A stretch of DNA of 62,632 bases, filler included, from Dugesia japonica (GCA_001938525.1; 6 parts of 6 records of this genome joined end to end with filler, not necessarily neighbours in it); one strand, 5' to 3'; positions 3,271 through 60,700 are shown, numbered from the whole stretch's first letter. Made by a program: numbers and translations. Notes: generated from the letters alone by a model not told the origin.

Positions 3271-3271
3271 A

Positions 3272-17390: not shown

Positions 17391-17879
17391 GATACAGAAT
17401 AACCATATACCTCTTTTATTATAATTATTTTTATTTCACCAAATGTCTTTATGACAAACAGTCCGAATGACCATATGGTTATGACTAACTGTCCTATGGC
17501 CAAATGCTCTATGACCAGAAGTCCTAGAACCTCAATTTCTACTTGATCATATTGAGAATAATTTTGAATTATAAAAAAAAGATTTATTTTAAGAAAACTA
17601 ATGTTTATATTCTTGATATGATACATACATACTTGTTATTTGTTAGTTTTTATTAATCTTTTCTTGTTTTAAAAGAAATGACTGGTTATTATTCATTTTA
17701 ATTTATTTGATTTATAAAAATAAGACATGCTTTTCAAAATAAAATCATTTAAAAAATGTCTAACTTTGAAAATTTAATAATGAGCTACTTAGATATGGAA
17801 TGTTATTATATTAACTAAGGTCGAGATAAAATAAAACAAAGTCCTAATTTCAAAACTATAACGCATTACAGAGACATCT

Positions 17880-18254: not shown

Positions 18255-18354
18255 NNNNNNNNNNNNNNNNNNNNNNNNNNNNNNNNNNNNNNNNNNNNTT
18301 AATTAATTAANNNNNNNNNNNNNNNNNNNNNNNNNNNNNNNNNNNNNNNNNNNN
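18255..18354. other. Artificial contig linker
   Basis: N44-TTAATTAATTAA-N44. Confidence 0.97.
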
Positions 18355-18599
18355 TAGACCTGATTTTATATAAAGACGGACCCCCTAGAAATAATTACCT
18401 AAATCGTCTAAATAAAAAGGGTAGAACCTCAACACATATAATGTGACAAATTTATAAAATTCGTGTTTTAAATTTCTTATTGAAATAAATAAAATTATTC
18501 AAACAAATGTCAATCTGAATTAAAATAAAAAATAGATTATTAAAAATTAGCTACCCTACAAAATAAATTTCCGACCAAATAAATTAAGCATTTTTCATT

Positions 18600-19060
18600 G
18601 ATCTAGTTGAATCAGTTCATTTTTGGGCGGTTTGGTTGAAACTTACCTCAAGAATAGTCAATATGGGCCAGTTTTGGACAATTTGGTCAGTTACTTACTC
18701 ACTTTTGGCAATGTTGGTTATTTTCTTACAAGGTTTGGACAATGTTGGTCAATTATTTGGTCACAATTGTAATATTTGGATAATTTGGTTGAGTTATTTC
18801 CTCGGGAATAGTTAATTTGGTTCAGTTTTGAATGATATTGTCAATTATTTACTCAGTGCTCAGACTTTGGTTGACACTGCTCCAATTTTGGACGATTCGG
18901 TCAATTATTTCCTCAGCATGGATAAACTTAGTCAATTATTTATTCATGGTAATTGGTTTTGGGTGGTTTTTGGAAAAGGATCAATTATTTGCGCACAAGG
19001 TTAATATTAGACGAATTCGGCCAATTCATAATCTATATTGAAATATTTGGTTACAAAAGT
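18600..19060. repeat. Degenerate ~40-bp tandem repeat; an inverted relative lies at 9250-9424
   Basis: Recurring TTTTGGACAAT(T/G)TTGGTCAATTATTT(C/A)CTC. Confidence 0.6.
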
Positions 19061-20029
19061 CTTTAAGATATAGTCAAACCTATTTGGAAAATTAAATCCA
19101 TTAAAAGCTTTATTGAGTAAATATTATTATTAATAAATAATTTGTCTTATTATTTTGTAACTTTTTATTTACCTTTTTATAAATCAAAACAAGTTTATTT
19201 AACAGTACAGTTTATTTAATTGAATCCCATACTATTCGATGTTCCAATGATTGTTCTACATGACATATGGCAACTGAAATTATAAAATTAAAAATAGATT
19301 ATTAAGGCAACAAAGATTACTTAGGTATTTGGATCTCTTTCCATGTTGTATTGATGTTGTTGTCTTAATGCTTTCAGTTTTATATTCATTTGAGTTTGAT
19401 TTATTGATTCAGCGCTTGAATAACTTAAATCATCATTAAATTCTTTGATTAATGCTTCTTTTGCGTTCTCATAAGACTCATTTACAACCGCTGACAATTT
19501 GAGAATATTATATTTAACTAAATTATCTATTAGAAATGTCATTAAAAATTTTTGGAATAATAGTTCTTCCACTCATTTTCATGAAAAATATTGTAAATGC
19601 ATCATCATCTTCAACAACATCTTGATTACATAGTTCTATTTCGTTCAACATGTCCTTCTGTTAAGATTACATCATCCATTTTTGAAAAGTGTACAATGCT
19701 TACAATCACTTAATTTAAACAATAATAGTTAAATGATTAATTAAGTTAATTAATTCTTTTAATATTTTATTAACAATTCATTGATTCCAATTGAAAATAA
19801 ATGAACACANATTGGATCATATTTTGAAATTCTTAATCTTGGGAATATTTTAGGTTCATATACACATTTATCTAATTTGACTGATACACATTTGGATAAT
19901 TCATATTATTAGGTAATTTTAGAAATTCGTAAATTTTTTAATATTTTTAAAATTTAATAAGGTTTTTATTAAAACCAATGTTTATTAGCTTAAATTTTTA
20001 AATGTAAATTTGAAAATTTAATTGTAAAG

Positions 20030-21648
20030 ATTCTTACAATAAAGCTCTTGAAATGTGGAAAATTACTGGATAATAACTTATTTGACTTAATAATGGTTTA
20101 TTTAAAACTTCATGTTTTCTTTTGACTGACTTCTTCCAGCAATTTAGACAAAAATCTTTAGCTCACAATAGACTTGAACCGCTAAACTTCTTTAGAATTC
20201 CAGGCATGTCATTGGCTTTTGCCTTGATGACTTTAATCGATCCAATTCAGTTATTGACTGACAATGACTTGTATACCTTCTTTGAGAGTGGTATTGGAGA
20301 AGACCTTATCCTTGTTAACAAGCATTATGTGTTTTATGATGAATAATTTAAATATTAATATATATAAATTAATAATATAAATTAATATAAATAATTTATA
20401 TGATTAAGCTTTAAGTCAAAATCTTCCTTATAAGAATTTTGAATGAATTTATTCTGGTTTTGATAACTTATTGAATGATTGTTTGATTTTTGACTTAGAT
20501 TCTTTATCTTATGGATATACTTTTGAGGTTAATATAAAAATTCCTACTAAATTAGATAATTATTTATCTGATCTTCTTGTTGCTGCTGAACACCAAAGTC
20601 CACTTGGATCTAAGGTAAAAAAGTTGTTGCTAATACATTATCCTAAGAATAATTATATTGTTGATTGGAGATTGTTGCTAATACAATTACAGTTAGGTGT
20701 TAAAATTAATAAAGTTCATAGAGCTGTTAAGTTTAGACAGGACAATATTTTTAAGAAATATATTGATGATGCTACCCAATTAAGAGAACAAAGTAACTCA
20801 GATCTCGATAAAAATTATTATAAATTCTTGAATAATAGTTTTATGGAAAATCTGTAGAAAATCTATTGATTCGTATGAATCTTAGACTTTGCAATTCGGC
20901 TAAAAAGCTTGTAACTTATACGCTGAAACCAGGCTTAAAGAAATCCATTAAGATAGATGATCACTTGATTACTGTCTGGTTGAGTAAGGAATTGGTTTGT
21001 TTAGATAGACCTAATTACACTGGTCAAATAGTTTTTAATCTTTCTATATTAAGGATGTACCAATTACAGTACATTGAACTTGAGAAATATAGGAAGGAAG
21101 AGAATTGTAAGATCAATATTAATGCTGGTGATACCGAAAGCTTCTTCCTTGAAGTTAAAGATATCAAATTAGAGAAATTGTTAGGCTTAATGGTTCGTAA
21201 TAATCTGCTTGATACTTTAAATTATTCTAAAACACATCCTCTGTATAGTGATAAGTTGAATTCAGTTATAGGAAAGTTTAAAGATGAAAATAAGGGTAAT
21301 AAGTATAAGAAATGGTTGTTCTTGAGACTTAAGTGTTACAGTTTTCTTAGCGATAACAAGTCAATGAAAACTAAAGGTGCAACACTGAAAGATAGTGGCA
21401 TTAACTATAAGTCATATCTTGATTGTTACAACAACAATAAAAAGGTCTCAGTACAACAATTTAGGATAGGAACTAAAAATCATCAGTTGTTTAATTTTAA
21501 CGATTCAAAAATAGCACTATCTAAAACTGACAACAAAAAAGTATGGCTAGAAAAGAATAAAAGTCTACCATACGGCCATTGTAGTATTCCGACCAATAAT
21601 AATGAAGTAACAACCAATGTAAAGGTAAAAACTTTATTTGTTAATTGA
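20030..21648 (+). pseudogene. Polinton pPolB catalytic domain, inactivated
   Basis: YLKL.V..LTD.FQQFR, PGMS, F.ESGI, YYKFLNNS, catalytic DTDS changed to DTES, IGKFKDE, LR.KCYS, SLPYGH. Confidence 0.92.
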
Positions 21649-21819
21649 AATTAATTAATTTTTTATTATTTAGTAATTCAACTCATTCGTTAAAATAGTT
21701 CAAGAAGATTATCAGACAACAGATTTTATTGAAATAACTATAAGTTTGAAAATATTTTTGTTTTTAATATTTTTATTTTTATTATTTTATGTAAATTATT
21801 GTTGATATTTACCTGAGAT

Positions 21820-22590
21820 TTAATTTAGAAATGTTCGATGGAATGCGGCAGATTGATACACAAAGGCAGTATTTTGTAAGGTAGTATGATGTACTAGAAG
21901 GTTGAATTTGGCAGCATCCATGGTTTTTTCTGTGAATGTATTCTCATACTGAAGCTTATCTAATATTTTAATGTAGAACATAAAATGTATTCTTTCAGCC
22001 TTCAATATTTTTATTAACTGATGTTTTTGTTTTTTCAAAAACTGACCATAACTGACTGTTCTAATGTCATTATTAATTTGTTTCATTGTTATGGAGTCAT
22101 GCTGGGTGGAGATGTCTTGGAATTCACTGACAGGATCATAAAAATCGGGAAAGTCTTTCTGTTCGAGAAAAGGGGTGAGATGGGAAAAGCGCGTACTATT
22201 GTTATACGGCATTTCAACCATGAGGGTTAGTGAGACAATTTGTCCAACAGAAGGTTCTTTAACATAACAGAAATTTGCACGACGTAATTTGGTATCATAA
22301 ATTTTTTGGGATCTACAAGAAGGACAAGGTACATTATCTGAGTTGGTTATATTAAAATATTCAGTTATACAAGCAAAACAAAAGAAGTGCTCACATGGTG
22401 TGATACGGGGTAAAATAGACTGGTCATAACATAAAGGACATATAGGTTTGTCTGTGATAAGTAACGTACCTAGTGCAATGTCTGGCCAACAAAAATTGTA
22501 AGGGTTTGTTAAATTCCAGTGTTTCTCATATAAAGTTATACGTGCTGTCTGCAATATAAACAATTGTTGTGATTGATAACTGGAATTCAT
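21820..22590 (-). CDS. C3HC4 RING finger protein, RNF10/Mag2-like, intronless
   Basis: CPLC...PRITPCEHFFCFACITEYF...CPSC followed by VGQIVSLTLM and C-terminal FVYQSA.....FLN, parallel to RNF10 (as recalled). Confidence 0.75.
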   Translation of the reverse strand: MNSSYQSQQLFILQTARITLYEKHWNLTNPYNFCWPDIALGTLLITDKPICPLCYDQSILPRITPCEHFFCFACITEYFNITNSDNVPCPSCRSQKIYDTKLRRANFCYVKEPSVGQIVSLTLMVEMPYNNSTRFSHLTPFLEQKDFPDFYDPVSEFQDISTQHDSITMKQINNDIRTVSYGQFLKKQKHQLIKILKAERIHFMFYIKILDKLQYENTFTEKTMDAAKFNLLVHHTTLQNTAFVYQSAAFHRTFLN

Positions 22591-22672
22591 TCTAAAATAT
22601 ATAATATTAATGATAGGGCTAGAGAGAGATACTATAATAACAATAGATAAATATATATAGTTCTTTTTTATG

Positions 22673-23734
22673 TTACTCATTGTTAACTGAAAGTGTAAGT
22701 GTNNNNNCCTTTTCCGTGACAGCGATGGTGTTAAGCAAAACATTTTCAACAACAAATTTTAATGTCTTCTTACTATCCTCTTTAATGGTTGTTAATCTAA
22801 TGCGTTTCTTTCCAAACTGTAATTGCATATCTTTACCTGATATTCTTTTCAAAGTGTTTTTTGCATTGCTAATATTTCCATCCAACTTATCTATTTTGAG
22901 GGCTCTATTCAAATTGATTGTGCCCCTACCAGGTTTGTATATATCAATTTGTGGTCCAGAACCGAGGTCATCACTGTCGCTATCCGTATGATACGGCATC
23001 ACCTCGAAATCTCCTCTTACTTGATCCAACCTAAGATCTTCCACTTCCTCACCTGACCAGTATTCAGTTTCACTTTCAGACACCTTTTGTTCTCTCTGTG
23101 ACATTGTCCGTTCTGGAATCTCATCATCCTCAGATGCGTCCATATCTGTTTGTATCTGTTTAGGATTTCTTCGTATCATATCATCAATTAGTGTCTGCTG
23201 CTCACCAGTGTCGTTATGCGGTCTAAGTTCTTCTGGTAAGTCTTCCTCGTTCCACTCTATATCTATGTCATTACTCATATTAGATTGACTATCTGTGCTT
23301 CTATCTGTCTCTTCTCCATTCTCTTCCATATCTGAATCTTGTTCAGAATCTAATATCCATACTACACTATCTGGTTTCTCCTGTTCTCTAGTCATGACTT
23401 CTTGCAATATTGACGCATTATTTTCTATACCTTGCATAACCGGATTATTACCAGGATATATAGAATATTGCCATGGTTGCTGAGTAATTATTTGTTTGTA
23501 TATAATCTTTATGAATGTTATTCGTTTTGCTGTCGATTCCTGCGCTTTTTCTCTCGCTGTTTTCAACATATTTCTGATGACCCTATCTTGTCTTATGGGT
23601 TTGAATACTGCTTCCATAAGTTTGATCAATTTCAACTTCTTTACATTTGGAATATTACAATCATATGCTACCATCGCATTTGCTCCTCTTGCTAATTCCA
23701 ATAACATTATTATAATTGTTATTATTGTACCCAT
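22673..23734 (-). CDS. Signal peptide plus AYDCN glycoprotein stub fused to an acidic low-complexity region
   Basis: TIITIIIMLLELARGANAMVAYDCN matches TTILLLFLIMGRSEAILAYDCN at 54140-54210; the rest of the ectodomain is missing. Confidence 0.65.
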   Translation of the reverse strand: MGTIITIIIMLLELARGANAMVAYDCNIPNVKKLKLIKLMEAVFKPIRQDRVIRNMLKTAREKAQESTAKRITFIKIIYKQIITQQPWQYSIYPGNNPVMQGIENNASILQEVMTREQEKPDSVVWILDSEQDSDMEENGEETDRSTDSQSNMSNDIDIEWNEEDLPEELRPHNDTGEQQTLIDDMIRRNPKQIQTDMDASEDDEIPERTMSQREQKVSESETEYWSGEEVEDLRLDQVRGDFEVMPYHTDSDSDDLGSGPQIDIYKPGRGTINLNRALKIDKLDGNISNAKNTLKRISGKDMQLQFGKKRIRLTTIKEDSKKTLKFVVENVLLNTIAVTEKXXTLTLSVNNE

Positions 23735-24167
23735 TAGTGGTCAATTTGATTTTTTTAGTTTCTTTATTAATAAGTTTCTTTATTTCATCTTCTTGTTCTG
23801 TTTGTTGAATTTTTTGTTTACGATTATTTGTTGGATATAACGTTTCCCAACCTCCTTCTTGTGTGATCCACGCGTTAATCCCTTTATTCCAAAATCGATT
23901 AACTATTCGTTTTACAACCAAAATATTTTTATCCGGTTTCTCAACTAATTGTTCTCGATTCTTAAGTATTATATACGAAATAGCTGTGATTACTTTAATT
24001 TTATTTATTCCTTCTTTCATCATTGTTTTTATCACTTTATAATCATCAATTTCNGGATCTGCTATTATTAATTTGCTCACTTCTTTTATTATGAGTTTCA
24101 TGTCTTCGAATATCATTAATGCTTTATTCTGAGTTATTATGCAGTCATATAGATCAGCATGTACCAA
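23735..24167 (-). CDS. Bcl-2-like domain
   Basis: BH1-like MMKEGINKIKVITAISY and BH2 NAWITQEGGWETL (23844-23870). Confidence 0.72.
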
Positions 24168-24199
24168 TTTAATTAGACTTCTTATAAGTCCTTGATCTG

Positions 24200-25121
24200 A
24201 TCCTGCTTATGCTTGTTCATCATATCTTTGTGATATATTATTCAAATGTTCCGCTTGCACTTTTTCTGGTATTATATCCTCTAATTTTGGTCTACCTCTT
24301 GATCTTTTGTAATCTGATACTTTGTCTTTAAATACTTTCTGTCTTGGCATCTCGCTTCTTACATTATCTGATGTTGATGGTTTTTCATTCCTTGTGGTCG
24401 ATGTTGGTGGCTATTGCTGGCTTGCTCTTTCCTCCTCAGCTTTATTTGCTTGTGCCATCATACTTAAAATTTCTTCCATAGATTGTTGTTGATCATCTGT
24501 TAATACTTGTGGCTTATGTTTCATAAATGTCGCTTTTATGATATTAATCTTACCTGGAATAATTCCATATTCCATCAATGTTTTGTTCTCATTTAGTTCT
24601 GTATTGTAGAACGATAGCTGTATCACATCTTCATTTTGCAACAATACTGGCCAATATCTATTTACTATTTTATATAATTTATTTGTTTTTGTACACGCAT
24701 GTACTGTCAATTCTAATGCTGTCACCGAGCATTCGTTTTTTCCTGCTACCACTTTGATATTTAATGACTCTTGCAACATTTCGTTTCCTTTTACGTATTC
24801 ACTATATTTTTGAAATATCTCATCTATTGTTTCTAGATTTTCTGATATCTCTATTCTGTTTCGACTCTTTGCTAACATGATTATTATTGGTTTAATTTTT
24901 TGAAAATTGATAGGATATTCGTTAACATCTTTCAAATATTGTAACAATCTAAGTTCATTAATTCTTTCTTTTGTTATTTCCAATCTGACATTCTCTATCA
25001 ATATTTCTTGCTTCTTTTCGTCTATTGCATCTAAATCTACTTCTGTTGGTTCACACATATTTATTTCATATTCCTCTCTCTCTTCTTGTCTCTCCATCAT
25101 ACGCTGATAATGTATTTTCAT
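24200..25121 (-). CDS. Ubiquitin-like domain plus AT-hook (one in-frame stop at 24411)
   Basis: IQLSFYNTELNENKTLMEYGIIPG resembles the ubiquitin C-terminal half; KRSRGRPKL at 24282-24308 is in the same frame after the stop. Confidence 0.65.
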
Positions 25122-25219
25122 ATCTTAGAACTCAATTCTCATATTTTTATAAGCTTCATTATCGATTACTTCAATAGCATAAGTTTCTCTTGTTTCTGGG
25201 CTGAATGATACATCTTTCT

Positions 25220-26405
25220 TCAGAATACTTCTAGAATCATTTGGTTTATTTCTACNNNNNNNNNNNNNNNNNNNNNNNNNNNNNNNNNNNNNNNNNNNNN
25301 NNNNNNNNNNNNNNNNNNNNNNNNNNNNNNNNNNNNNNNNNNNNNNNNNNNNNNNNNNNNNNNNNNNNNNNNNNNNNNNNNNNNNNNNNNNNNNNNNNNN
25401 NNNNNNNNNNNNNNNNNNNNNNNNNNNNNNNNNNNNNNNNNNNNNNNNNNNNNNNNNNNNNNNNNNNNNNNNNNNNNNNNNNNNNNNNNNNNNNNNNNNN
25501 NNNNNNNNNNNNNNNNNNNNNNNNNNNNNNNNNNNNNNNNNNNNNNNNNNNNNNNNNNNNNNNNNNNNNNNTTTCTGTTGTAATTGCTATAATTTCTTTG
25601 GTAATAATCCGTTTTAAATTTTACATCCTGCTCCTTTCTACTATCTTGACGATTTTGATATGCTTTCCTCATCTCATTCCATGACGATTCCTCATTGCTT
25701 GCATATATTTCAATTGCATATATTTGTCTGGTTTTATCTTTATGTTTTGTATTTGCCTCAATTTGTCTCGTTTTTCTTGTTAGTTCTTCTAAGTTTTTAT
25801 ACTCTGCTGCAATTAGAGCATCACGAATATATTTATGTGTCCCATTTAGAAATTGAAATTCTATAGTATTATCTCCTTTTCCAAAAGCTTGCTCTGCTAA
25901 CCTTGTTAATTTATATATATATTCGCCCACTATTTCATTTGTTAATTGTGTTCTATCTCTAAAGTTTTGTATACAAATTCTTTCTAATTCACTTGGAACT
26001 ATTATCTTTTCCTCAATTTTGCTATTAGATCATTCCATTTATCAGGTTTGGCATCCAGATTTTTATAACATTTTAATGCNTTTTAATACTGTATTTTAAT
26101 TCTTTTAAATACAGTGGCAATCTTTTAATTAATTCTGCTTCAGTCCATCCATAAGCTGTGGCACAGACCTGCATATGGTCAAAGTATTCATCGGCCTCCT
26201 CAGGTTTCCCTGCATAAAATTGTATTGGTAATATATTTAATGTACCTCGGTGTCCAAATTCACCTCCTACTTGATCATTAATTGGTAAATTTTTAAATGG
26301 CATATTCACAGTATTATTATTTGCTGCAGCCATTTTTTTGATCTCTCTGTTTCTCAAATTATATATTGTATTCTCTTCAATGATTATTCCTTCAGTTTTT
26401 TTCAA
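25220..26405 (-). pseudogene. Gag capsid (Ty3/Gypsy retrotrans_gag type), frameshifted, contains a gap
   Basis: FYAGKPEEADEYFDHMQVCATAYGWTEAELIKRLPLYLK; R.Q...E.VGEYIYKLTRLAEQAF...QFLNG. Confidence 0.85.
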
Positions 26406-26414
26406 CTGGAATGC

Positions 26415-26570
26415 TAATAATTATTTTCTTCGGTATCGTTTCAAACAGTATACTAATCAAACAAATTCTTCGGTATCATTTCAACCGGAATACTAATCAA
26501 ACAAATTCTTCGGTATCATTTCAACCGAAATACTAATCAAACAATTTCGTCGGTTTGGTTTCAACCGATA
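26415..26570. repeat. 40-bp tandem repeat (~4 copies) in the gag leader
   Basis: TTCTTCGGTATCATTTCAACCGGAATACTAATCAAACAAA repeated. Confidence 0.85.
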
Positions 26571-26830
26571 AACTCTGAATCACATTTAACTTTATTACTT
26601 AAAGGGAACTGATTATATATTATCAGAACTTTGACAAGAGATTGCGGTAGGAATTCGATCCAAATCTAATACCAAACTTAAGATAATCAAATTAATCAAC
26701 TTTGATAAGAGATCGTAGTAGGATTTTCTCCAATATCTGATATCAAACTGATCAATACACGGTATATTTTAATAAAGGTTTGAAAACCCCCTTGATTTTA
26801 AAATAATTTTAATGATTTTTATTATTTTGA

Positions 26831-26849
26831 TTCCCGGTTCGCGGCACCA
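26831..26849 (-). promoter_or_regulatory. tRNA primer-binding site (His- or Phe-like)
   Basis: TGGTGCCGCGAACCGGGAA four nt after the LTR end ...CCAACA. Confidence 0.85.
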
Positions 26850-26853
26850 AATT

Positions 26854-27504
26854 TGTTGGATATTTAACTCAACAAAAGTTTATGGTTCGTATTAAAATGG
26901 TTGTAAGATTGTGTATAATTTATCTTTTTAATTATTGTTATGCAATGTATGTAGCTACAAATATTATATAGACGATATTTTTACCAAAAATATAAATAGA
27001 ATTATATATTGTATAATTCCTTGTATAAATTAAATAAGTAATCACATTTAAAATATTTATTAGGGATATATACTTCAACTTATAAGCGATAGTTTATTTA
27101 AAGAAGGAAAGCCACTTAAAGAAAGAGGTTTCCTTAATTAAAAAATGTCTGAAAAATAAACTGACATACGTCAGTATTTATAGTAAAATTTACACTAGGC
27201 CTCATGCATTGACCTAGTGATTGTTATTCAAAATTTTTATTTATAAACATAAAATTTTCCATAAAAAATCAAAATTTTTACTTACAGATAATAATAAAAT
27301 TTTCCATTCAAATAATAATAAAGTCTAATTTACAGATAATAATCAAATAATAATAAACTCCAATTTACAGATAGTAATAAAGTTCAACATAAAATTTTCA
27401 AGTTCAACATATTTGTAAAATAATAAAATAAAATATAATGCCAGCATTGAAATAAAATATAATGTCAGAAAATTTTCAAGTTCAGCATAATAATAAAATA
27501 AAAT
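26854..27504 (-). repeat. 5' LTR (3' part only; cut by contig end)
   Basis: Ends ...TCCAACA just upstream of the PBS; internal short tandem repeats at 27280-27500. Confidence 0.75.
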
Positions 27505-27604
27505 NNNNNNNNNNNNNNNNNNNNNNNNNNNNNNNNNNNNNNNNNNNNTTAATTAATTAANNNNNNNNNNNNNNNNNNNNNNNNNNNNNNNNNNNNNNNN
27601 NNNN
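27505..27604. other. Artificial contig linker
   Basis: N44-TTAATTAATTAA-N44. Confidence 0.97.
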
Positions 27605-34261: not shown

Positions 34262-34689
34262 TATATATAATTCACTATTCATAATTGCTGTTTTTTTAAT
34301 GAGACAAAATAACAGTTCCATACAATCTTGATTGAGAAATGATAATTTATTTTCATTATTGAATTAGACATATTTAGCATATTTTTAAAATTGATTACTG
34401 TTTGAAATTCAGAAATTTTGAAATTATCATTTATTATTTTATAAACAATGAGTCATTGATTGTTTATTGTTATTGATAATGACTATTATAAGAGACGTGC
34501 TATTCACGGAAATGAGTTTTTTTACTTCAATTTATTATTCGAAAATGACTTATTTATCAAAAATTTCGATGAACAAAAGAAAACTTACCATAGTTCAAAT
34601 ACGTAAAATGTTATTTTTTGTATTAATAATAAATAATTAATTTTTATTTATGCACAATAATTAATTTTGTTCAAACATTTTATTCTAGA

Positions 34690-47257: not shown

Positions 47258-48176
47258 GAGCCGCCGATCCCTCAGAAAACTCTCGGTACTCCCCCAGGAA
47301 GAATTATTAAAAGTGTGCATGTTACCCCGGCATTAATGTAAAAGGAAGGAAGAAAGCCAGAAGAGTTCGCCTATACTACAGCAAAATGGGTACTCTCACA
47401 CTCAGGAAGAGATAACCTAGCATAATAAGGGAAGACTTAATCAAGGAAATTAAAGGAAGTTTAAAGGAAGACTTATTTAACGAAAATTAAAGAAAGTAAA
47501 GCAAGGAAGATGATTTTAAGACTGTGATGACAAGTATGGAGCAGCATGATAGTAAAGTAAGTTTAAAATCTGGAAAAGGAGTGATTGCCTCCTCAGTAAA
47601 GACAATTAGGAGAAAAATTTATTCTAGAAACCCAAACCACAAGTATTACAAAACCAAAACCGAAGCACAGCGAGAAACCAACTAACCAGACTCTGACAAG
47701 AAGATTCCGACTCGGAAAATAGGAAACCACTTACAAGGTCCAACACAACGGGATTATTTACCTCAAGCTCAGTTCTAAAAGAAAACTAACTTTCGAGGCA
47801 AAAATCATCAAGGAAACTAAAGAACTCATCACTTTATTTGGACCAGGAAGAGAATATTTGTTGACTCAGGAAACCAGAATTCGACAAAACAGTATCCAAA
47901 ACTAAAACGTTTGTAACCATCAGCTCTAACAGTAGTCCGAGTGATAAGGAAAATAAAACTAACCCGAAAACCACATCCGGTAAAATTTCGGTAGCTAGTA
48001 ACTGATCAAGTGGGATAAGTTATACCTCAGAGGAATCAGAAATTACAGAAGTAACAGACAGTAATCAAGTAAACACCGACTCAGTGGTAACACGGTCAAA
48101 CAATTTAGAAACCGAAACACTCACATTAACAAACCAAGACCCGAAAATAGAAACTAATCTAGTAAAAGATAAAAGC

Positions 48177-49200
48177 ATGGCAAACAAAACTGAAAGCCAA
48201 CGACCAGAGTGGAAAATAAAATTTGATGGCGAATATTTTAGTGGAATACCAGAGAAGTTGGATGAATTTATCCAAAACTATGAAATGTACGCCAAAACTT
48301 GTGGTTGGGACGAAGAAGCAAAAAGAAAGCGGTTACCTGCTTATTTGACAGGAGTAGCTAAAACTGTGTTCTGGGATCACACTAAGGGCATGGAAGCCAT
48401 ACCCGAAATGGAAAGATGTGGTGAAAATATTAACCGATAATTTCCAAAATTTTAAGTTGACTGGCCAAGACTTCGAACAATTTACCAATCGAAAACAGCA
48501 GCGAGGAGAAACTCCACAGACTTATATGATGGAACTCTAGAGACGCGGCAAACTAGCCCTAGCAGATAAACTGGAAGATAGTAAAGTGCTAGCCATATTC
48601 TTAAATGTTTTACGCGATGAGAACGCCAAGCTAATAGTAAAGTTGAGTAAGCTAGTGACTCTACAGGATGCTCTAGCCACGTTGCGAATTGCAGCAGATA
48701 GACCTTCCAAACGGATATTCAAAGTTGAAGGACAGACAGAGGAGACCACACCAAGGATATCGGACTTCATACCTAACACCCAATCAATGATGAAAACCCT
48801 GACTCCAGGGCAAGAACGGAATAACAGGAATGATTGGCCCAACTACCCACGAGGAAATGGTGGAGGATTTAATATCCCTCGGAACAATTGGCAAAATAAC
48901 CGAGATATACAATGCAATACCTGTGGAAGAAGGGGGCATATAGCCCGCGATTGTAGAAGTAGAGGCATTATTAATAACAACAATCGATTTTGTACCTATT
49001 GCAAGAAGACCGACCACAATGTAGAAACGTGCTTTTTGAAAAACCCAACTGTCTTTTATAAGTGTAACAGAAGAGGGCATATGGCCAAGGAATGTCCAAG
49101 CGGAAATCAAGCAAGTTACAATCGAAACCCGAATGCAAATCTGGATAATCTAATGCAGAAAAACGAGAGATTGAGGCAGCGAGTAAATCAAAATAAAGGA
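48177..49200 (+). pseudogene. gag: Gag capsid plus three CCHC zinc knuckles
   Basis: FSG.PE.LDEFI..YE......GWDE......LPAYLTG.A; CNTCGRRGHIARDC, CTYCKKTDHNVETC, (F)YKCNRRGHMAKEC. Confidence 0.93.
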
Positions 49201-49619
49201 CAAGTAAACTTGGTGCACCAAAGTACTTTCGATAACGTGTACCACAATGCCCAACAAGAAAGTGATTGGCTTAAATGGCAAAACCAGGATTTGCAAGTAC
49301 AGCAGGAAAGACTAGCAAGGAGAAACTTGCTAAACGAACCACACAAGAATCAATGTAATATGATCAGAACCCATAGACAAATCTATAACCAACATGACAA
49401 AACCACGGAAGTTATCGAAATGGAAGACACGCGGAAACAACTCTTGATTACATCACCAGAATTCGAGTGGACTAATGAAATCATCTATAAAACAATAGAA
49501 ACATCAACCACAACCACCTGGAGAAGACGAGTGACGAATCAGTTACTTCGATTATACCAACACCCACAAGTACATACAAAAGTAAAAGCTAATTGGCAGA
49601 AAATAATATCGGATTACAT

Positions 49620-52600
49620 CGCCGAGCTCAATAAAGAAACTCAGTTAGAAGACTATGAATTCGAAATTCAATATGTATGGCATAACAACCCGGAGGTAAT
49701 CCCGAAACGACTAAAGCTGGTACTAAAGGAAATGACAGTTCGTCACCTAAAAGAAGCTATTAACTGAATAAAATGGAGAGAATTAAACGGTATTAAAGGT
49801 ATGACGGTAAATCCGTTTCTCGAATCACCACCATTTAACGATCAACAACAATGGAATGGAAAATGGAATAGGCACAGACTGCAAATAGGTAATATATGAA
49901 TCAATATTCTTCTAGATGATAAGAATCTAATCTATTACGGGGCACAACCTCACGAAACAACCGATATCAAACTGATAAACCGGGGATTGGTCTTCAGACT
50001 CCAAATAGTAATTCAGGAGATAGAAACAGACGAGTTATATCATAACCTCAAAGTAACATTTATAAAAGAAATAGTTCCTACTCAGGCTCAAAACTACCTA
50101 CGAAAACGATTTGAAAAGTTGAGACTAAGGGACTATCCAGACCTGGAACAAAAGGAAGCCTCGCGATTATCCTTAGCCCGAATTAACGAGATACTTATAG
50201 CTGCCCAGAAACTCCATGATACGATAAAGAGGGGTGTATACTTGAAGTTGACCAATCGATTAGTAGAATTATTAGAAGTTATGAAATTGATCACAAATTT
50301 TGAAAGCGATTGGACAGAATGGTTACCTGTACATTATGATTTGGTAATATCCAACATGGGATTATCAGAATACAAAGTATGGTTGTATAACCCAGAAGGT
50401 AATATGAAACTGACACTCACGGGATTAATGGTAAAAGATCTGGAATCGGCACTTAATCAAGCAGGTTATCCATGTGTAACTGATAAATATGTATGTACTC
50501 CAAGTGCAATAGTGGATTTTAATGCCAGAAAAAGACATCTCTACGATTTTGAAGTAAAGCTAGGAGAAGAAATTGATCTTGTAGTATTGGACAAACACCC
50601 TGGTATTGATTATGACATATGGGTAACGAAAACCGGAAGATCGGCATTAGAAATCATGGGGGAATGGAATATCTATATAAACAAGAAGTAGAACCTATAA
50701 AATTAAGATACTTTCCACAGTATTGGGAAAGAAAGACAAGCTAACAAAGGAGGAAAGGAAGCAGTTACTGATGACGCGTAAAGATTTTCTCAAACAACGA
50801 TTAGAGAGAAGAGACGGGAAATGCAACATGATAAGAATGCGACAAATGCCGTCAAGGGAAGTAGTAGCAATGCGTAAAGTGGAGGAAATGGTTAAACTAT
50901 TCCATCAGAGTCAGTCTCCTCAGCAAAGAGGGAAGCATAAAAAAGGTGGATATGATAGTATTGGAAGGATTAACTATCCGACATGTTATAAAACCAAATA
51001 AGAAGTGGTTATGGCCAAAATCACTCAAGTCATATAAAATGCAGGCGGGAGCAACAATGATCATATTGGCCAAGAAAGAAGATCATATTTTCCTACACGA
51101 TATTAAACCAGGAGAGACCACTGAAATCAAGCTACGCCTCGGAAAATGACAATAGATATTCCTATACCAAAAATGCCGGATACCGATCAACTTATATTCA
51201 ACATGATGAGTCTGTATATACAAGAAATATTACCGGTAGAAAATGAACGTCTCATAAATACGTACGGAGAAAGCAAAGCCCAAGTAAACATGGTCAGGAA
51301 TAATGGATCCAAAATCCCAGTCCTGACATCGGATGAGGAGGAGGAGGAAGAAACCGCAGACGATACCGTCAAACCCAAACTATTACCGTTTAAACAAGAA
51401 TTTGTTGGCCCTTTCAGGTCCCCTCAAGCCAAGCGGATATCAAAGATAATTTCTGATTTCTGTTATTTTCTGGGAAAAATACCCAGGGCAAAATTTTGGA
51501 ATGCAATAAATTTACTAACGGATTTGTCAAAATATACCGAAATAGTAAAAAAGAACGTAATTAGTGGAAATCTATACTCAAGTTGCATACTGGTGCAGTT
51601 AAGGCCAGTGCCAAGGGAGATGATTTTCAGGTCACCATAGAATATTGGACACCAAACAAGAAACCCAGAAAGGAACAAGAATTGGCCTTAATGTACATTC
51701 CACATTTCGATAGCACAGGAGCATCGGAATTACAAGAAACTATAGAGTCGTTGGATATAGCTGATCAACAGAGTGGCTACGTAATCACAAGTGACCATTT
51801 GTGATTTCCTATCAAGTTTGAAGGAAACAGCATTTAATGAACGTAGGGTTGAGATCAGGGGAAAATACTTTTCTCTAAATACAGAAACCCGAATATTACA
51901 CTCCAGGTCCAGTAAAGTCTATGAAAGAAGTATTACGACAACTCGAAGATTTATACGAACAAGAAATCGGCAGTGGAAAACTGTTTGAAGAAGTCGACGA
52001 TAGAACAATGGAGATAAATATTGAGTCATGGGAAGATAGTAAAACTTGGGGAAGCCTGCCTCGAGTAATAATGAAAATACTTAAGACACGACAAAGTTAT
52101 GCAATTAATCCTTAAGTTAAATCAACTACGAGCTATAAGTCGAATGCCAGGAGACGTAATGGATGTAATATTAAATAAAGCAGTTCGCATGATAACTAAT
52201 GAAGCAGTTGACGTAATAATCAAATTTCCGGATGAAAGCGAAATTCATTGGCAGGTCCAAATGAATGAAACATGGGCTAAGTTACGGAAAAGGATTATAA
52301 AATTTATGAACCAACAGTGTATCCTTGACGAGGAGGAAAATGGAACGCAACCATTAGTACAAGAAGACGACATAGTGCTCTATTATAACCAAGTAATAGA
52401 ACCAGACCAAATGAGATTGCCAGTGAAATATATCGGGATTTCGCCAGGAACTAAATTGAAAATGTATGTAACAGCAAAGAAGGCGGAGAGACGACGACCA
52501 CGGGTCTCGGAGAAAAATGGAAACAGGAAGCCAGAGAAGTAGTGGAATATTATATCGAGGAGATACATCCACTAGTATTCGCAAGAGCTAAGCTCCCTAA

Positions 52601-53120: not shown

Positions 53121-53624
53121 CGGAAAGACGCAGACCCTTACAAGGCAGCAGATAAAACGAGACCAATAAAAAACACAAAATATTCACCTCCAACTAGGAA
53201 AAGTGAAGAAATAAGGGTCAAAGGGTCAACACGAAGTAAAAAATATGATCCTAGCAAGGTAGATTTGGATGAAGAAGATGTATTGGAAGAACAACCATTA
53301 TCACCAATATTGAGTAGAATAGCAAAAGAATTGCCCTCCTCAGTTATGGACGTTTTAATGGATACAAATCACCCCTTAGAAATGGAAAATACTATAGAGA
53401 CAGAAGAGGAAGAAGTGCCGCCAAAACCAGTACGCACCCGAGTAGATGTAGAAACAATTACCGAACCTCCCATTTGAGGCAGACCAAGAACAAAACCTCC
53501 GGGAAATCCGGAGGAGGAGGAAGCATTAAAACAAAAACGATTAGCAACATCAATAAATCACTAAACCAAGAGATTAGCAACGGTATCACAGGAAAGAGAT
53601 CACGAGAATTCAGCGGATGAGGAC

Positions 53625-54015
53625 ATGCCCACAGAATTAGTAATACGGCAACTATTGTTAATGCTTTACCCAGAGCTAAAGATATGGATTGGTAAATTCG
53701 AACTATCCGATGGCCTCAGACTGCTTGCAAAGGAAATAGAAGCGGCCATCAGGAAATTTCCCGCTACTAAAGGAACTAGTTATGGTACAAAAGACAACCT
53801 AGAAGGGGTAATGGATGAGTTGCTACAGGATTCATCAACGAAAGGGAGAATAGTGGAGTCTTTAGCGCATTTTTATTAATCAAACACATCTATCAATCGC
53901 TAGAAGCAAGCCGTCAAAAAACTTCATTCTTAGTAAATTACCGATATTGGATTTAATGCAAAACAAAATTGGGCCGCTGATAAAGCAGCAAGGAGGATGG
54001 AAAAGTTTATTGAGA
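53625..54015 (+). pseudogene. Bcl-2-like domain (frameshifted)
   Basis: BH3-like LRLLAKEIE, BH1-like VMDELLQDSSTKGRIVESL, BH2 LIKQQGGW/EKFIE at 53977-54015 (alternate frame). Confidence 0.75.
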
Positions 54016-54139
54016 CCATATGCCCTAAACCACAGCCATCACATGAAAATGCAACTAGAGTAATAAGGATTGTTCGGGACCAGTTAAATGAGATCGAGAA
54101 TGGATGGGCACGTGAGCCTCGCGGAAATTCTTGGCAAGC

Positions 54140-56424
54140 ATTAACAACTACAATACTCTTGTTATTCTTAATTATGGGCAGAAGTGAAGCCATATTGGCA
54201 TATGACTGCAATAGGATGCAAGTTGGGAAGGAAGTATTCTCATTAGTAGATACTGAGGAATGTCCAGACGTAAACCCGAAGAAAATCTCACTCCGTAATA
54301 ATTCCGTTTATCACTTATATCAGGAATCAGATTATTACAAGGCCCAAGTACGCGAATGTACGGTAACAATGAAGACATTTATATTTCATTGTGGTTACCA
54401 CAGTTATACCTCGATAATCGATCCGAGAACAGTGAGACATCCAGTACATCTAACGGGACAACAATGCAACGCAGGGTTCACAACTGGTAAAATTACTATC
54501 AAACATGGAACTCAGGTTGTCGCCAAGAAAGGACATGTAATCGACCAACCAATAGAAGCAGCAGGGAGTATATCGTCACATAAAGGTAACTGTGAATATG
54601 GTACGTACACTATACGAGGAAAGGTATGGCAGTATGCGGTAGCCATTGAAACCTACACAGTAGAACTCAAAGAATACGAAGAATTTTTCGATGCACAGGA
54701 TTTAACTATGAAAGGAAGGTCATACTGCAAAGCAGCGGATGGATCATGTAATACAGGTACGTCGACGTTGATATACCAAGTAGATCACCAGGATTGCAAG
54801 AAGCAGTGTTTAATGAATACCAAGGACAACGTGTTATAGCACCTATTGATCAAGCTCCCAAGGAAAGTAATCTAAAAGATAGAATAGATAACTTTAAAGA
54901 AACAATAAAATCGGGCCCGAGGTCATACGATCAGCAATGGCACACCACGCCCACGGTGTTAATGTCTTCAGAACAAGATGAGACAATCCGATTAATCAAA
55001 GGAAATTCTATGTCTAAATGTGGCCAAATAGTATACAAAACAAACTATAAAGGAATATTTGTATCAGAATATCGAATAAAAACGGCACAAGCTGCAGTAA
55101 TGTCCCAAGATATCAAGCTGCACCTCTATGCCAATAATAAAATGGACAACTTATTCCACCGGATGCAGGATACTATCGGACGAATGTACCACGACCTTAT
55201 ACAAAACGATTGCACATTAAACAAGGAAATATTGAAAGCTAGCAATGGCGGTTACAAATCCAAATAGTTTAATCCCGTTACTTCCTCTAGAAAAAGGACA
55301 ATTTGGGCGAGTAGTAGGTGAAGTAATGTACCTATATAAATGCAAGGCGATAGATGCAGAATTTTCATTCAATCCCAAAAACTGCTATAATGAGATAGAA
55401 ATCATCCACAATAATGAGAAACGTTATGTCCAACCAATTACTCGAATAATATCACCGCTGGGTTATAAGCCAAATATCATAAATTGTTCTAATGTATTTG
55501 AACCACAATACATAATGACAGATGGGTCCTGGATAAGGTTTCCACAACAAAAAAGGAGTCGAACCACGGAAATTCTCAATGTTACGATGAAATAAGGGAA
55601 TGCAATTTACGCCAATCGATATAAATTAAGAAGAAATCTATAGCAGGGAAGATTTAGAAAAAGCAAGGGAATATATGTTGTTTCCGGTTCAAAGGATGCA
55701 AATCCTATCGAATATAGTACAATTAACCAGTGGAACTAACATTGACGGACGAGTAAATTACGATGCACTCTTATCAGCGGATCATTTTCAAAAAGCCACC
55801 GAAAATGTAATGCGGAAGATGTGGGGAAGATTTATAATATTTGGACAAGCGATGGCAGGATTGCTGGGAGTCATGTTGATAATTTCAGTAACACGGGTAG
55901 TAATTAACCAATTGTTTGCCTGTTTTGACATATACAAAAGAGAAAAGAAAGTGAATTGGAAAATGGTAACTGGAATATTCCCATTCCTAGCCAAAACCAT
56001 AGTGCTTAATAGTCACTCTAAAGACATCGAAAGGATAAAACGATTTATTCGGAAGCTAGGACAAATAAGAGGATTGGACAAGGAGGTCATAATGCAACTT
56101 AGATTATTGTGTGAAGAAATGAGTAATGCTAAAAAGAAAATATCATATTTCAACCAATTCAAAGAAAGATTCAAGAACAAAAGCGAGATTAGTAGCAGTA
56201 GTGACGACGACAGAGGAGGAAGCAGTGGAATACCACACGTGCCTAGTTATAAAACCGCCATGGAATACGATGCAGAATTTAAAAGACAACAATATGAAAA
56301 AATCAGTAAGATGCAACGATTAAGAAATGCATTAAAATTTGGAGGAAATGAAAATATACCAGCACCAGCACAAATGTACTATAACGCCTATCCGCAACAC
56401 GGATGGCAACCTATGAATCAATAA
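54140..56424 (+). pseudogene. env: Envelope glycoprotein, chuvirus (Jingchuvirales) G-like, with signal peptide and C-terminal TM
   Basis: SEA/ILAYDC...SLVDTEEC, HCGYHS, LY.N.K, GEVMYLYKC, C.NEI, PITRII, TM FIIFGQAMAGLLGVMLIISVTRVVI. Confidence 0.85.
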
Positions 56425-56469
56425 TCACAACAGGTATGGGCACCAGGTCCCATATATAACACCCCTTAT

Positions 56470-56985
56470 ATGGGTTCACCACAAGCTCGTAATATGGCAT
56501 TATTAACAGAGAACAATTTATCAACGATTGACCGAAGAATTACTGACCAAAATTTGTACTCTCCAAATAACCAAATTACTGAGGACGATAAACTAGAAAC
56601 TCAAACTGTGTGCATGATGATCTCTCCGCGAGCAAAACTATTACAAAAAAGAATAAAAATAGATGGAAGATGGGTACTAGCCATTATCGATACGGGAGCA
56701 AGTACGACGTTAGTCCACAAAAGGGTACTAGAAGACTATCGACTACTCCGAATAACAATTCCTAAAGGAGTTATCATCACAGTCTCGGTGGAAAAGATCT
56801 CACTCGTTGGACAAGCAATATGTGCAGTAGAAAGTGACGGACTACGTCTATGGCGTAAACTACAAATAATGAATGAACTAACTTTCGACTGTTTATTAGG
56901 ATTGGATCTCTTACCACGCCTTTGTCCAGAAGGGATATTAGACCTGCGGAAACTAACCATAAGGGAGAATCATGATCGAGAATAA
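56470..56985 (+). CDS. Retropepsin aspartic protease 1
   Basis: AIIDTGASTTLV and CLLGLDLL; same frame as the env tail, separated by one TAA. Confidence 0.9.
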   Translation: MGSPQARNMALLTENNLSTIDRRITDQNLYSPNNQITEDDKLETQTVCMMISPRAKLLQKRIKIDGRWVLAIIDTGASTTLVHKRVLEDYRLLRITIPKGVIITVSVEKISLVGQAICAVESDGLRLWRKLQIMNELTFDCLLGLDLLPRLCPEGILDLRKLTIRENHDRE

Positions 56986-57142
56986 GCGCCGGTAGGGTAT
57001 CAGAAAACTAGAATAATAACCCAACAAAGACGATTAGCCATGGAATCAACCAACGTACAACCAAAAACCGTGACTCTCACCAGGCAGAGGCGAGCAAGGT
57101 AACTCAAACCAAAAGCGTGAGAAAACTACAAGCACATCCACC

Positions 57143-58153
57143 ATGATAAGAGACGATTGGATAAGGTTTCAAGAGCGAGAACCTAGATGGAAAAATCAAA
57201 AGCAGCCTAAAACCAAGCATAACTCTTCAAACGTGGTATGTACAAGTCTCAGCGGGGGACCTGTATTAACAATTATGATTAAAATCAATGGTAGACCTAC
57301 AACGGCATTATTGGACACAGGAGCAACAATCTCACTATTATCAATAGAAGAGATCGCGATCACGGAATATAAAAACATATTACCTACTAACACCACAGCA
57401 GATGTGACAAACGGAAGCAGTCTTAAAATTTTTGGGGAATTAGCTTATGAGGTTGAATATCAAGACAACAAAATTAAACACAAAATGATAGTAGTAGAAA
57501 TGGCTGGAGAGTGTATTTTGGGTACAGACATTCTCCCAATTTTGATGAAGGATGGCATATTAAACTTTTCCACATTACAGTTGCAATCCTTGGAGGGGTA
57601 TACCCACGTTAAAGATCATGAAGTATTCACTACAGAAGAAATCTTGGTATCTAGTAGATGCCAAGTCTATTGCGTAGTAAGTACGAAAAGTGCATACGAA
57701 GGATATTGCTATTTTGAACCTTATGACGGATTTGCACAACAATATGAGTTACCTACGGCAGGAGGAATAACCACAGTAAATAAAAGCGGAGAGGTACCGG
57801 TTAGCTTGGTCAATTTCACTGAAAAGGATATCAAAATCAAACCGAATTCCAGGATGGGCAGACTAACTCCCATCGAACCAGAAGCCGAAGAGATAGAGGA
57901 AATAGTCGCCGAACTCGAAATAGATAGAACATTTAAGGTGGGAACAGAAACACTATCAGATGATCAAAAACAGGCAATACTACAATTGTTGGAAGAATTT
58001 AGGGATATCTTTGCATGGACTGATGAAGAGCTAGGTATGTGTACAGCTACAATGCAAACCATTCCCTTAACAGATGAAACACCAAGCAAGCAGAAACCAT
58101 ATGCTATGACAGTGGAGAAAAAGGAGTTTGCAAACAAGGAAACGGCCAAATAA
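57143..58153 (+). CDS. Retropepsin aspartic protease 2 plus beta-rich spacer before RT
   Basis: ALLDTGATISLL and CILGTDIL; V.LVNF....I.I......G spacer; LLEEFRDIFA. Confidence 0.9.
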   Translation: MIRDDWIRFQEREPRWKNQKQPKTKHNSSNVVCTSLSGGPVLTIMIKINGRPTTALLDTGATISLLSIEEIAITEYKNILPTNTTADVTNGSSLKIFGELAYEVEYQDNKIKHKMIVVEMAGECILGTDILPILMKDGILNFSTLQLQSLEGYTHVKDHEVFTTEEILVSSRCQVYCVVSTKSAYEGYCYFEPYDGFAQQYELPTAGGITTVNKSGEVPVSLVNFTEKDIKIKPNSRMGRLTPIEPEAEEIEEIVAELEIDRTFKVGTETLSDDQKQAILQLLEEFRDIFAWTDEELGMCTATMQTIPLTDETPSKQKPYAMTVEKKEFANKETAK

Positions 58154-60700
58154 GTAAAAATCGGTGTGATAGAACCCAGTTGCTCACCATGGCAATCACC
58201 AGTGGTACTAGTCGATAAAAAAGACGGGACACAGCGATTCTGTATCGATTACAGGAGATTAAATGTGCAAACTAAAAAAGATACGTATCCGTTACCGGAT
58301 ATCAATGAATTACTTCAACTACTGTGTAACGCTAAAATATTCACCACATTGGCTACTCGCAAATACAGATCAAACCAGAGGATAGAGAAAAAACAGCCTT
58401 TTCTACAGGCAAAAACTTATATCAGTTTATCCGTATGCCATTTGGGCTTACCAATGCATCAGCTTCTTTTCAACGAATGATGAATTATGTGACTCATGGT
58501 ATATCTCAATGTATGGGCTATATTGTCGACCTATTGATCTATTCACCAACATTCGAGGGACATTTCAATGATTTACGTAGTGTATTTATCCGATTGCGGA
58601 AATGGAATTTGAAAGTTAAACCCACCAACTGCGAATGGGTGAAGAATAAGGTAACATATCTCGGACATTTGATATCGGATAAAGGAAAAGAGCCTGATCC
58701 TCGAAATAACGAGAAAATACGAAATATAGCACCGCCAAATTGTGTGCTCAAAATACAAGAATTTCTCGGTCTTGCAAACTATTATCGCAAATTCATTAAG
58801 GATTTCACTAAAACTGCGAAACCAATGCAGAAATCGGTCAAACAAAATACTGCCTTCATATGGGAACCAGAGCAACAGCAATCATTTGAGACGTTACGGG
58901 ACAAATTATTAATGCACCAATTCTGGTACATCCAGATTTCTAAAGGCCCTTTATATTAGCCACTGACGCTAGTGGTTATGCGATGAGCGCAGTATTAAGT
59001 CAACTAGATGAACAAGGAAGAGAAAGAGTGATCGCATATTTTAGCAAAAAATTTCAAGGAGCAGAATTAAATTACAGCACTACAGAACGGGAAATAATGG
59101 CTATCGTGAAAGCCACCAAACATTTTTTATCTCTCATACATGGTCACGAGGTGTTAATCTATACGGATCACCTACCAATCACATCCATGGCTCAGAAACC
59201 ATTGCGATGGAACAGAATAGCAAAATGGCAATTAGCAATGCAAGATTATTGCCATCTGTTGAAGTTTAAAACGGGGAAAGCGAACTCAAATCCCGATTGT
59301 CTGTCAAGAATCGGTGGACCAGAAACTACGAAGAATACACCAGAAGATACAGAAACATTTACATTACGGGAATTATTAGAGAAAAAAGTAAGAATGGTAT
59401 ACTTTATATTAGCCGAGGATAGAAATTTCGATGGGCTAAAACAAGCACAGGCCGACGATGAGGAAATTAAGATCATCATGAAATATATGGAGAATTATAA
59501 TTTAGAGAAGTTAGAATGCGAACCTAAGATGAAAGAGCACTTNNNNNNNNNNNNNNNNNNNNNNGCACTTACCAAAGGATGGTTGACAGCTCAAGACGGA
59601 GAGAATACCATATTGGGTATCCCTAAAGCAAGGCGGGATAAATTACTTGAACAATATCACAATGGTGTACTCGGCGGACACATGTCTCATAAGAAAACCG
59701 AGTCAAAATTAAGACAGAAATATTACTGGCCACACATGACAGAATCTGTAAAAAAATAGATTGCCAAATGTTAAATATGTGCTGCCAGGAGAGGAACAGG
59801 CAAAAGAGTAAAAGCATTATTGAAACCAATCGCAGTACCAGCAGCGCCAATGGAAATCATCGCTATGGATGTAGTTGGGCCATTACCACCAACCCTAAGT
59901 GGAAATATTTACATACTTAACATAATGGATTATTTGTCCAAATTCCCCGAGGCGTTTCCAATGAAAAATCAAAAGGCCACAACTATAGCGGACACAATGG
60001 TACGGAAATCTTTCAGTCGATATTGTACACCCAAGAAAATATTAACGGATCAAGGAAAAAATTTCATGAGCAATATATTGGCAGAAATATCGAATTTTCT
60101 TAAAATCCACCAGTTACGGACATCACCTTATCATCCCCAAACAGATGGATTAACGGAACGATTTAATAAAACTCTGATCAATATGCTGTCTAGTTATGCG
60201 CAAAAAGAACAGAATAATTGGGACAAACATATTCAGCTATGTCTATTTGCCTACCGTATGAGTGTGCACCCAGCCACTAAATACACTCCGTTCGGTCTTA
60301 TGTATGGAAGAGAATGTAACATGCCAATCGATCTAGAATTTCAATTACCTATAACACAATATCAAGACGAAACCAATTTCGTGGCGAACTTCAAAGAAAC
60401 CCTGCAAAAGATATGGAAACAAGCCAAGGAGAACGTGGGATTTTACCAAGAAAGTTACAAAGATTTACATGATAAAACTGCAACGCAACATTCCTTTTAA
60501 AAAAACGACGTGATATTGATTAATTTGCCCGATATTTGTGTTGGCACTACGTCAAAACTGAAAAGGCCATGACAAGTGCCATACGAAGTAATTGAGGTAA
60601 CCGAAACCAATCTCAAAGTTCGAAAGAAAGGAAATCTCTTGGAAAAACCTAAAATATACCACGCCAACTTATGTAAAAAGGCTGCAACGATGGAGGAAGT
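58154..60700 (+). pseudogene. pol: RT-RNase H-integrase (Gypsy order), inactivated
   Basis: SPWQSPVVLVDKKDG..RFCIDYRRLN, MPFGL.NA, YIVD in place of YxDD, TDASG, TDH, GGH...YYWP, MDVVGP, TDQG, YHPQTDGLTERFN, .PY motif. Confidence 0.96.

Follow-up and report, generated by a model that had tools for sequence, protein, structure and literature searches.

A decayed Burro-type Gypsy element of Dugesia japonica with a Bcl-2-before-Env cassette and a probable replacement of Env and Pol

A 62,632-nucleotide stretch of Dugesia japonica DNA (GCA_001938525.1; the window), consisting of AT-rich scaffolds strung together by joiners of the form N44-TTAATTAATTAA-N44, contains two long terminal repeat (LTR) retroelements. 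Element 2, the stretch under study, lies on the minus strand of the 9 kb scaffold 18355-27504; element 1, used for comparison, is on the plus strand and fills the 15 kb scaffold 47258-62632. The locus raises two questions: whether the cassette of Gag, a ubiquitin-like (Ubl) module, an AT-hook-like motif, a Bcl-2-like domain and a signal-like segment ending in AYDCN is a trait common to both elements, and what became of element 2 beyond AYDCN. Element 2 probably represents the 5′ portion, now decayed, of a Burro-type Gypsy element in which Env and Pol were replaced after AYDCN, most plausibly as a lower-copy, non-autonomous subfamily. The parts of element 2 that bear on the first question are the following.

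26076..26333, minus strand: Gag N-terminal part, whose frame breaks close to the N at 26080 (matched to Gag of element 1 by tblastn, E = 9e-7; z = 14.6)
25574..26029, minus strand: second part of Gag (Retrotrans_gag, E = 0.026, second of five families, below the cutoff)
24510..24800, minus strand: ubiquitin/SUMO-like domain, a weak call (PF11976 Rad60-SLD, E = 0.0086, the sole family matched, below the cutoff)
24308-24285, minus strand: AT-hook-like motif KRSRGRPK (from the sequence)
23840..24206, minus strand: Bcl-2-like domain (PDB, Pfam PF00452 and alignment to element 1)
23654..23734, minus strand: hydrophobic signal-like segment with the first Env residues, AYDCN (hydropathy 2.4; PF24664; z = 6.9)

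Their counterparts in element 1, and the genes that follow them there, are located as follows.

48006..49767, plus strand: Gag with CCHC knuckles (zf-CCHC, E = 1.3e-9)
53478..54212, plus strand: AT-hook-like motif, Bcl-2-like region, signal and AYDCN (sequence; alignment to element 2)
54138..56007, plus strand: Env of the class III fusion type, split into four pieces (PF24664, E = 4.3e-33, 3.2e-11, 4.7e-14 and 1.7e-18)
56600..60500, plus strand: Pol, with two protease-like segments, a dUTPase-like segment, reverse transcriptase (RT), RNase H and integrase (Pfam)

An earlier note on this DNA had described the two cassettes as lying on different contigs and strands with no obvious DNA identity; scaffold and strand do differ, and blastn between the elements finds no match. 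All the motifs it quoted are there, and their order agrees between the elements: the Gag motifs GWTEAELIKRLPLYL near 26150 and GWDEEAKRKRLPAYL near 48300, the Ubl motif ENKTLMEYGI near 24580 of element 2, the AT-hook-like PI*GRPR of element 1 (GRPR at 53478), AWITQEGGWE with GGW at 23855 and PLIKQQGGW with GGW at 53992, and AYDCN at 23668-23654 with AYDC at 54198. Over its six frames the window holds two AYDC, three GRP[RK] and three GGW, and within these 62.6 kb the first two motifs are confined to elements 1 and 2. The spacing GRPR-GGW-AYDC is alike, at 441 and 187 nt in element 2 and 514 and 206 nt in element 1, and a small-x-small site stands three residues before AYDC in both (ANA in element 2, SEA in element 1).

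The likeness reaches past these motifs, so the outcome that the earlier note named as its refutation, a lack of significant protein alignment outside them, does not occur. In an alignment of the repaired frames from the AT-hook-like motif to AYDCN, with X placed at the breaks, 216 columns contain 51 identities and score 112, against 29.4 ± 4.4 for shuffled sequences (z = 18.8); none of the 2000 shuffles used in each comparison reaches this score. Judged from the sequences, homology of the two elements is thereby shown over this span. Taken separately, the N-terminal part of Gag (z = 14.6), the BH2 region (z = 8.7) and the signal (z = 6.9) are significant, each with 0/2000, while the C-terminal part of Gag and the AT-hook are not. 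When each piece of element 2 was scanned over 2302 window tiles (about 160 loci), the expected partner ranked first for Gag, Bcl-2 and the signal, fourth for the AT-hook and 44th for the Ubl module. An unbiased six-frame blastp is significant for Gag alone (39 aa, 38%, E = 1.4e-4), the BH2 stretch following at E = 0.21. Gag, Bcl-2 and the signal thus align between the elements, whereas Ubl is linked to Ubl by position and not by alignment.

The Pfam pieces of the element 2 cassette were chosen by eye, and all their matches lie under the curated cutoffs. In the Protein Data Bank (PDB), the best match of the Bcl-2 open reading frame (ORF) is Bcl-xL, weak at E = 0.15, and PF00452 matches at E = 0.049. 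The BH2 pattern W-x(4-5)-GGW is kept, WITQEGGWETL in element 2 standing against WIQENGGWDTF in Bcl-xL. None of 15 wrong-frame controls matched PF11976, PF00452 or PF24664. The Bcl-2 pieces of element 1 match neither PF00452 nor Bcl-xL in Pfam and PDB, so the Bcl-2 call is carried by element 2; at the BH1 position element 1 reads KGRIV, by eye. A single-sequence AlphaFold model of the element 2 domain (predicted local distance difference test score, pLDDT, 37) is uninformative on a helical-bundle fold. Env begins within 190 nt after the Bcl-2-like domain, directly behind it, and a hydrophobic segment occupies the expected place of a C-terminal anchor after BH2, across a frame break. The earlier note had taken the second cassette as independent support for both the Bcl-2 and the Env call; it does support the former, whereas it adds almost nothing to the latter, because the PF24664 match of element 2 covers profile positions 4-32 alone (E = 0.019, below the cutoff) and the Env of element 1 reaches E = 4e-33 by itself.

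For the Ubl module, PF11976 lies upstream of the Bcl-2-like domain, as in Burro elements (see below). The Ubl pieces have no relevant match in the PDB, and the single-sequence AlphaFold model of the element 2 module is uninformative (pLDDT 40). In element 1, the piece at 52195-52485 matches UCH_UBL1 weakly (E = 0.047). An alignment of five Ubl pieces was uninformative, one of them being in the wrong frame. The piece with KRSRGRPK has no Pfam match, and neither does the N-terminal part of Gag. As a separate observation, the stretch between Gag and the AT-hook of element 1 (49650-53015, plus strand) seems by eye to contain as many as four or five repeats of Ubl-like type, of which the piece at 52195-52485 is the sole one with a Ubl match.

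Dugesiid planarians carry giant LTR retroelements of the Gypsy group, known as Burro/GYPSM1 (Arkhipova and Yushenova 2019, PMC6431247). The Burro section of that paper reports them from S. mediterranea and D. tigrina, and from D. japonica as decayed fragments; they carry Gag, PF11976 before BCL-2, an Env of mononegavirus type that lies in frame after BCL2 and before the protease, a dUTPase between protease and RT, and accessory ORFs. Element 2 shows the same front-half order of PF11976, PF00452 and PF24664, by weak matches; element 1 has all the listed domains except a BCL2 match of its own, including a dUTPase-like segment between protease and RT (PF00692, E = 3.7e-4). As described for Burro, the copies are decayed, with stops and frameshifts, and high in copy number. 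Together with the alignment and the locus ranking, this published layout bears out the claim that the cassette is a common family trait and not a chance fusion; the layout itself is already published as a Burro trait, and the envelope-less offshoot is the smaller new point. The AT-hook-like motif of both elements is not mentioned in that section of PMC6431247. Unlike the Burro elements described there, neither element matches BIR, ankyrin or MATH (Pfam, 22 pieces), such cargo varying among Burro elements. Giant size for Burro means more than 30 kb with two LTRs, a length beyond the reach of scaffolds of 9 and 15 kb, on which one LTR end is seen. Element 2 further differs in the shorter distance from Gag to Ubl (1.6 kb, whereas element 1 has 4.2 kb), in its acidic and C3HC4 RING ORFs and in having no Env ectodomain and no Pol, hence no dUTPase-like segment. 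It is filed as a derivative and not as a complete Burro member, because Env is reduced to positions 4-32 and Pol is absent.

Two side observations concern the back half of element 1: tandem retropepsin-like segments (DTGAS, DTGAT) precede the dUTPase-like region (56600-57550, plus strand), and past the integrase (60573-62632, plus strand) lie a second GRPR (60750) and more than 600 codons with no Pfam match.

The second question turns on the junction just past AYDCN and on what follows it, neither of which the earlier note mentions.

23646..23655, no strand: junction at which other family contigs diverge from the element 2 copy (depth step, loose ends)
22709..23653, minus strand: ORF of 315 codons that continues the frame of the signal, basic at both ends and acidic in the middle (sequence)
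21823..22590, minus strand: RING ORF, 256 aa, uninterrupted, C3HC4, multi-copy (PF00097, E = 1.4e-7, above the cutoff)

Depth here is the summed coverage of the window by public contigs, among whose runs X4, X5 and X6 are DNA-like; since summed contig depth is not copy number, it is used only as a contrast between regions. A depth step at 23646-23655, no more than about 10 nt past AYDCN, occurs in 4/4 runs, with median ratios across the junction of 16 (X4), 31 (X5) and 37 (X6). Among the loose ends listed, 15 contigs in X5 and four in X4 end at 23646-23655, all on the upstream side. In X4, the median depth is 33,000-39,000 over Gag and the cassette, 1,052 over the acidic ORF, 837 over the RING ORF (range 750-940) and 1,449 over the LTR part, the sum falling from about 28,000 to about 1,200-1,700 past 26937 on the LTR side. 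Post-junction sites differ in 4-28 contigs per DNA-like run. Because the LTR, the acidic ORF and the RING ORF are multi-copy at a similar low level, they suggest a non-autonomous subfamily.

The acidic ORF would have a chance of about 6e-12 of remaining open. It has no Cys and no transmembrane or hydrophobic segment, and no homologues were found in Pfam, the PDB or metagenome contigs; given its acidic, disordered look and its lack of Cys, it may share the frame of the signal merely by coincidence. The RING ORF matches TRIM-type RINGs in the PDB (E about 4e-5) and has no BIR match in Pfam. It is intronless and multi-copy, as captured cargo would be. By eye, it may resemble RNF10/Mag2-type ligases. 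Within it, about 70 RNA reads of run X22 and 30 of X21 match a 35-nt patch alone (22026-22060), loose at both ends; this is a cross-match from another transcript and not expression of this locus. Among RNA records none was listed as containing this DNA. Raw RNA of two runs gave 136 and 33 reads, mostly less than 90% alike, and nothing firm on expression.

Several observations weigh against the reading of element 2 as a Burro-type front with Env and Pol replaced. The X blocks of the 216-column alignment were set by the analyst's hand, and between the Ubl modules all six shuffle comparisons (6/6) are non-significant and direct blastp gives nothing. The BH1 signature is not kept, element 2 having GINKIK where Bcl-xL has GVNWGR, and in the absence of this W-G-R anti-apoptotic activity of the domain is uncertain. 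A 139-aa piece matches Bcl-2 at E = 0.14, second behind CATIP_N; the 530-aa read-through of element 2 matches neither Ubl nor Bcl-2 in Pfam; and one of the 15 wrong-frame controls reached E = 0.019, to unrelated families. The reading also presupposes a common frame for Bcl-2 and the signal in the family. On the side of the junction, run X1, which supplies the bridging contig discussed below, may be the assembly's own source; no diverged second copy crosses the junction among the contigs listed; and depth also drops within the cassette, to 2,500-4,000 at 23880-23969. Finally, the LTR part has no second copy in the window, and no 3′ LTR is present on the element 2 scaffold.

The signal segment of element 2 differs in frame from the Bcl-2 domain. 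A programmed frameshift between the two was considered; as the breaks of elements 1 and 2 do not coincide, it is unlikely.

A different account keeps the same Burro-type front and takes the junction as a one-off, made in a single copy by loss of Env-Pol through deletion or by recombination with another repeat, and sees in the acidic and RING ORFs the usual 3′ tail and accessory gene of an autonomous, lower-copy subfamily. This account is possible and rather unlikely. A single exact contig was seen to bridge the junction, Burro elements do bear accessory ORFs (Burro section of PMC6431247), RING-containing cargo is described for Burro1 in PMC13465017, and the acidic ORF without Cys looks like an intracellular protein, unlike a secreted one. 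Against it, subfamily copies continuing into Pol would give loose ends on the downstream side, and none is found at 23646-23655 among those listed, single-contig ends included; nor does the post-junction part resemble the region past the integrase of element 1.

The replacement of Env and Pol by a lower-copy sequence can also be extended to a bolder form, which is quite doubtful: a non-autonomous Burro offshoot of many copies would keep Gag, Ubl and Bcl-2, would send the acidic protein into the secretory route by the Env signal peptide and would have a RING ligase of its own.

That the junction is an assembly chimera of two repeats is very improbable: the assembly is fragmented in a short-read style with many N gaps and the junction coincides with a change in repeat depth, but a 332-nt X1 contig (23389-23720) crosses it without a single difference, the N5 gap is covered by a 232-nt contig, and the reading frame continues open through the junction. 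Equally remote is a sharing of generic Gypsy Gag and chance short motifs alone, with wrong Bcl-2 and Ubl labels; it accords with a blastp significant for Gag only, database matches below cutoffs and uninformative single-sequence models, and is opposed by z = 18.8 over 216 columns, by first-rank partners found in order and by the identical domain order published for Burro (PMC6431247, Burro section).

If element 2 does derive from a Burro-type parent, one polyprotein would be made in the parent family, from which a retroviral-type protease may cut Gag and the Ubl module free. A double role is proposed for the hydrophobic segment that follows BH2, as tail anchor of a cytosolic Bcl-2-like domain and as internal signal for Env, with signal cleavage predicted after ANA in element 2 or SEA in element 1. 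Wherever the element is expressed, its Bcl-2-like domain would damp apoptosis of the cell. Through an internal deletion or a recombination event shortly after the start of Env, the signal may then have become joined in frame to a 3′ coding sequence, and the offshoot, retaining the LTR end, primer site and Gag, could be copied in trans by the Pol of intact relatives.

The Bcl-2-before-Env arrangement is common to two lineages whose proteins are only 24-38% identical. Its retention is in keeping with long-term selection and opens to testing the proposal that one segment acts both as Bcl-2 anchor and as Env signal. In a true multi-copy subfamily, apoptosis and ubiquitin modules would have been retained despite the loss of Env and Pol; the benefit of the modules would then be separable from particle entry, which bears on whether Burro cargo aids the element or the host. 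Were the bolder form with a secreted acidic protein correct, the envelope slot would have been repurposed for host-modulating cargo.

Large retrotransposon derivatives, terminal-repeat retrotransposons in miniature and gag-only elements are non-autonomous LTR derivatives that keep an LTR end, a primer site and Gag, have lost Pol and are multi-copy. Element 2 differs from these in keeping host-like Ubl and Bcl-2 modules and in the joining of an Env signal to a new ORF, and its 3′ LTR is unseen. The B-IAP cargo of Burro1 (Dev Cell 2026, as cited in PMC13465017), a RING plus BIR protein, protects stem cells. It is a Burro accessory gene with a RING and a link to apoptosis control; the RING ORF of element 2 would be a comparable accessory gene, without a BIR match. 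Errantiviruses of Platyhelminthes with GAG-ENV-POL order and an HSV/gB-type Env, such as Smed_errantivirus_1-6, are about 15 kb long (Chary and Hayashi 2026, PMC13524379). Element 1 shares their gene order and approximate scale, and its Env resembles, by eye, those of Smed_errantivirus_1/2 (VYQES..AKVREC, TPVLMS, KCGQ.VY.TNY.G). The entries of that paper are intact and the six Smed ones have no primer-binding-site type assigned, whereas element 2 has a primer-binding-site-like sequence and neither Env ectodomain nor Pol. The main text of PMC13524379 contains no occurrence of Bcl, ubiquitin, Burro or AT-hook. The available portions of PMC8532177, PMC13238120 and PMC11410931 add nothing on architecture. 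For a derivative, or for Bcl-2 plus a signal peptide in retrotransposons, the literature as far as accessible gave only PMC6431247 and PMC13465017; Grohme 2018 and Dev Cell 2026 may describe offshoots.

The front of element 2 is laid out as follows.

26854..27504, minus strand: likely the 3′ part of the 5′ LTR, ending CAACA at 26854 and cut by the scaffold end (sequence, depth)
26829..26849, minus strand: primer-binding-site-like 21-mer, beginning TGG, 4 nt past the LTR end (sequence)
26400..26567, no strand: leader tandem array, 40-nt unit, 4.2 copies, 84% match (repeat analysis)

The identity of the LTR is read from sequence and likely. The 21-mer may resemble the 3′ end of tRNA-His; ARAGORN found 0 tRNA genes over the window. 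A gap of 316 N (25256-25571) follows the second part of Gag at the knuckle position and could hide the zinc knuckles of element 2. In both copies the polyprotein frame is interrupted by stops and frame changes, at differing places, and the element 2 copy is dead: stops lie near 25125, 24411 and 24207, and the frame breaks near 26080 and at about 23740-23790. The ratio of nonsynonymous to synonymous substitution from read tables was dropped, because most of the differences listed are private to this copy.

Word-seeded protein searches are weak negatives: for the Bcl-2 ORF, 0/782 longer and 0/82 near-length candidates are related, and for the RING ORF 0/290 longer ones. Relatives were also sought in viral contigs and metagenome contigs, with zero loci.

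Further features of the window are listed below.

20447-21648, plus strand: decayed remnant of a DNA polymerase B of the protein-primed type, tail to tail with the RING ORF (DNA_pol_B_2, E = 6.3e-5), probably Polinton-like
18255-18354, 27505-27604 and 47158-47257: joining spacers
515-1066, plus strand: weak match to the Pox_A32 packaging ATPase (E = 0.0059), possibly another Polinton-like remnant
16509-17435, minus strand: RT fragment, putatively of non-LTR or Penelope type (RVT_1, E = 7e-24)
33670-34044, minus strand: helix–turn–helix fragment, putatively Tc1/mariner-like (HTH_50, E = 6.6e-8)
44314-44660 and 44881-45226: direct duplication of 347 nt (97.7%) on either side of an N gap, which may have been duplicated in assembly

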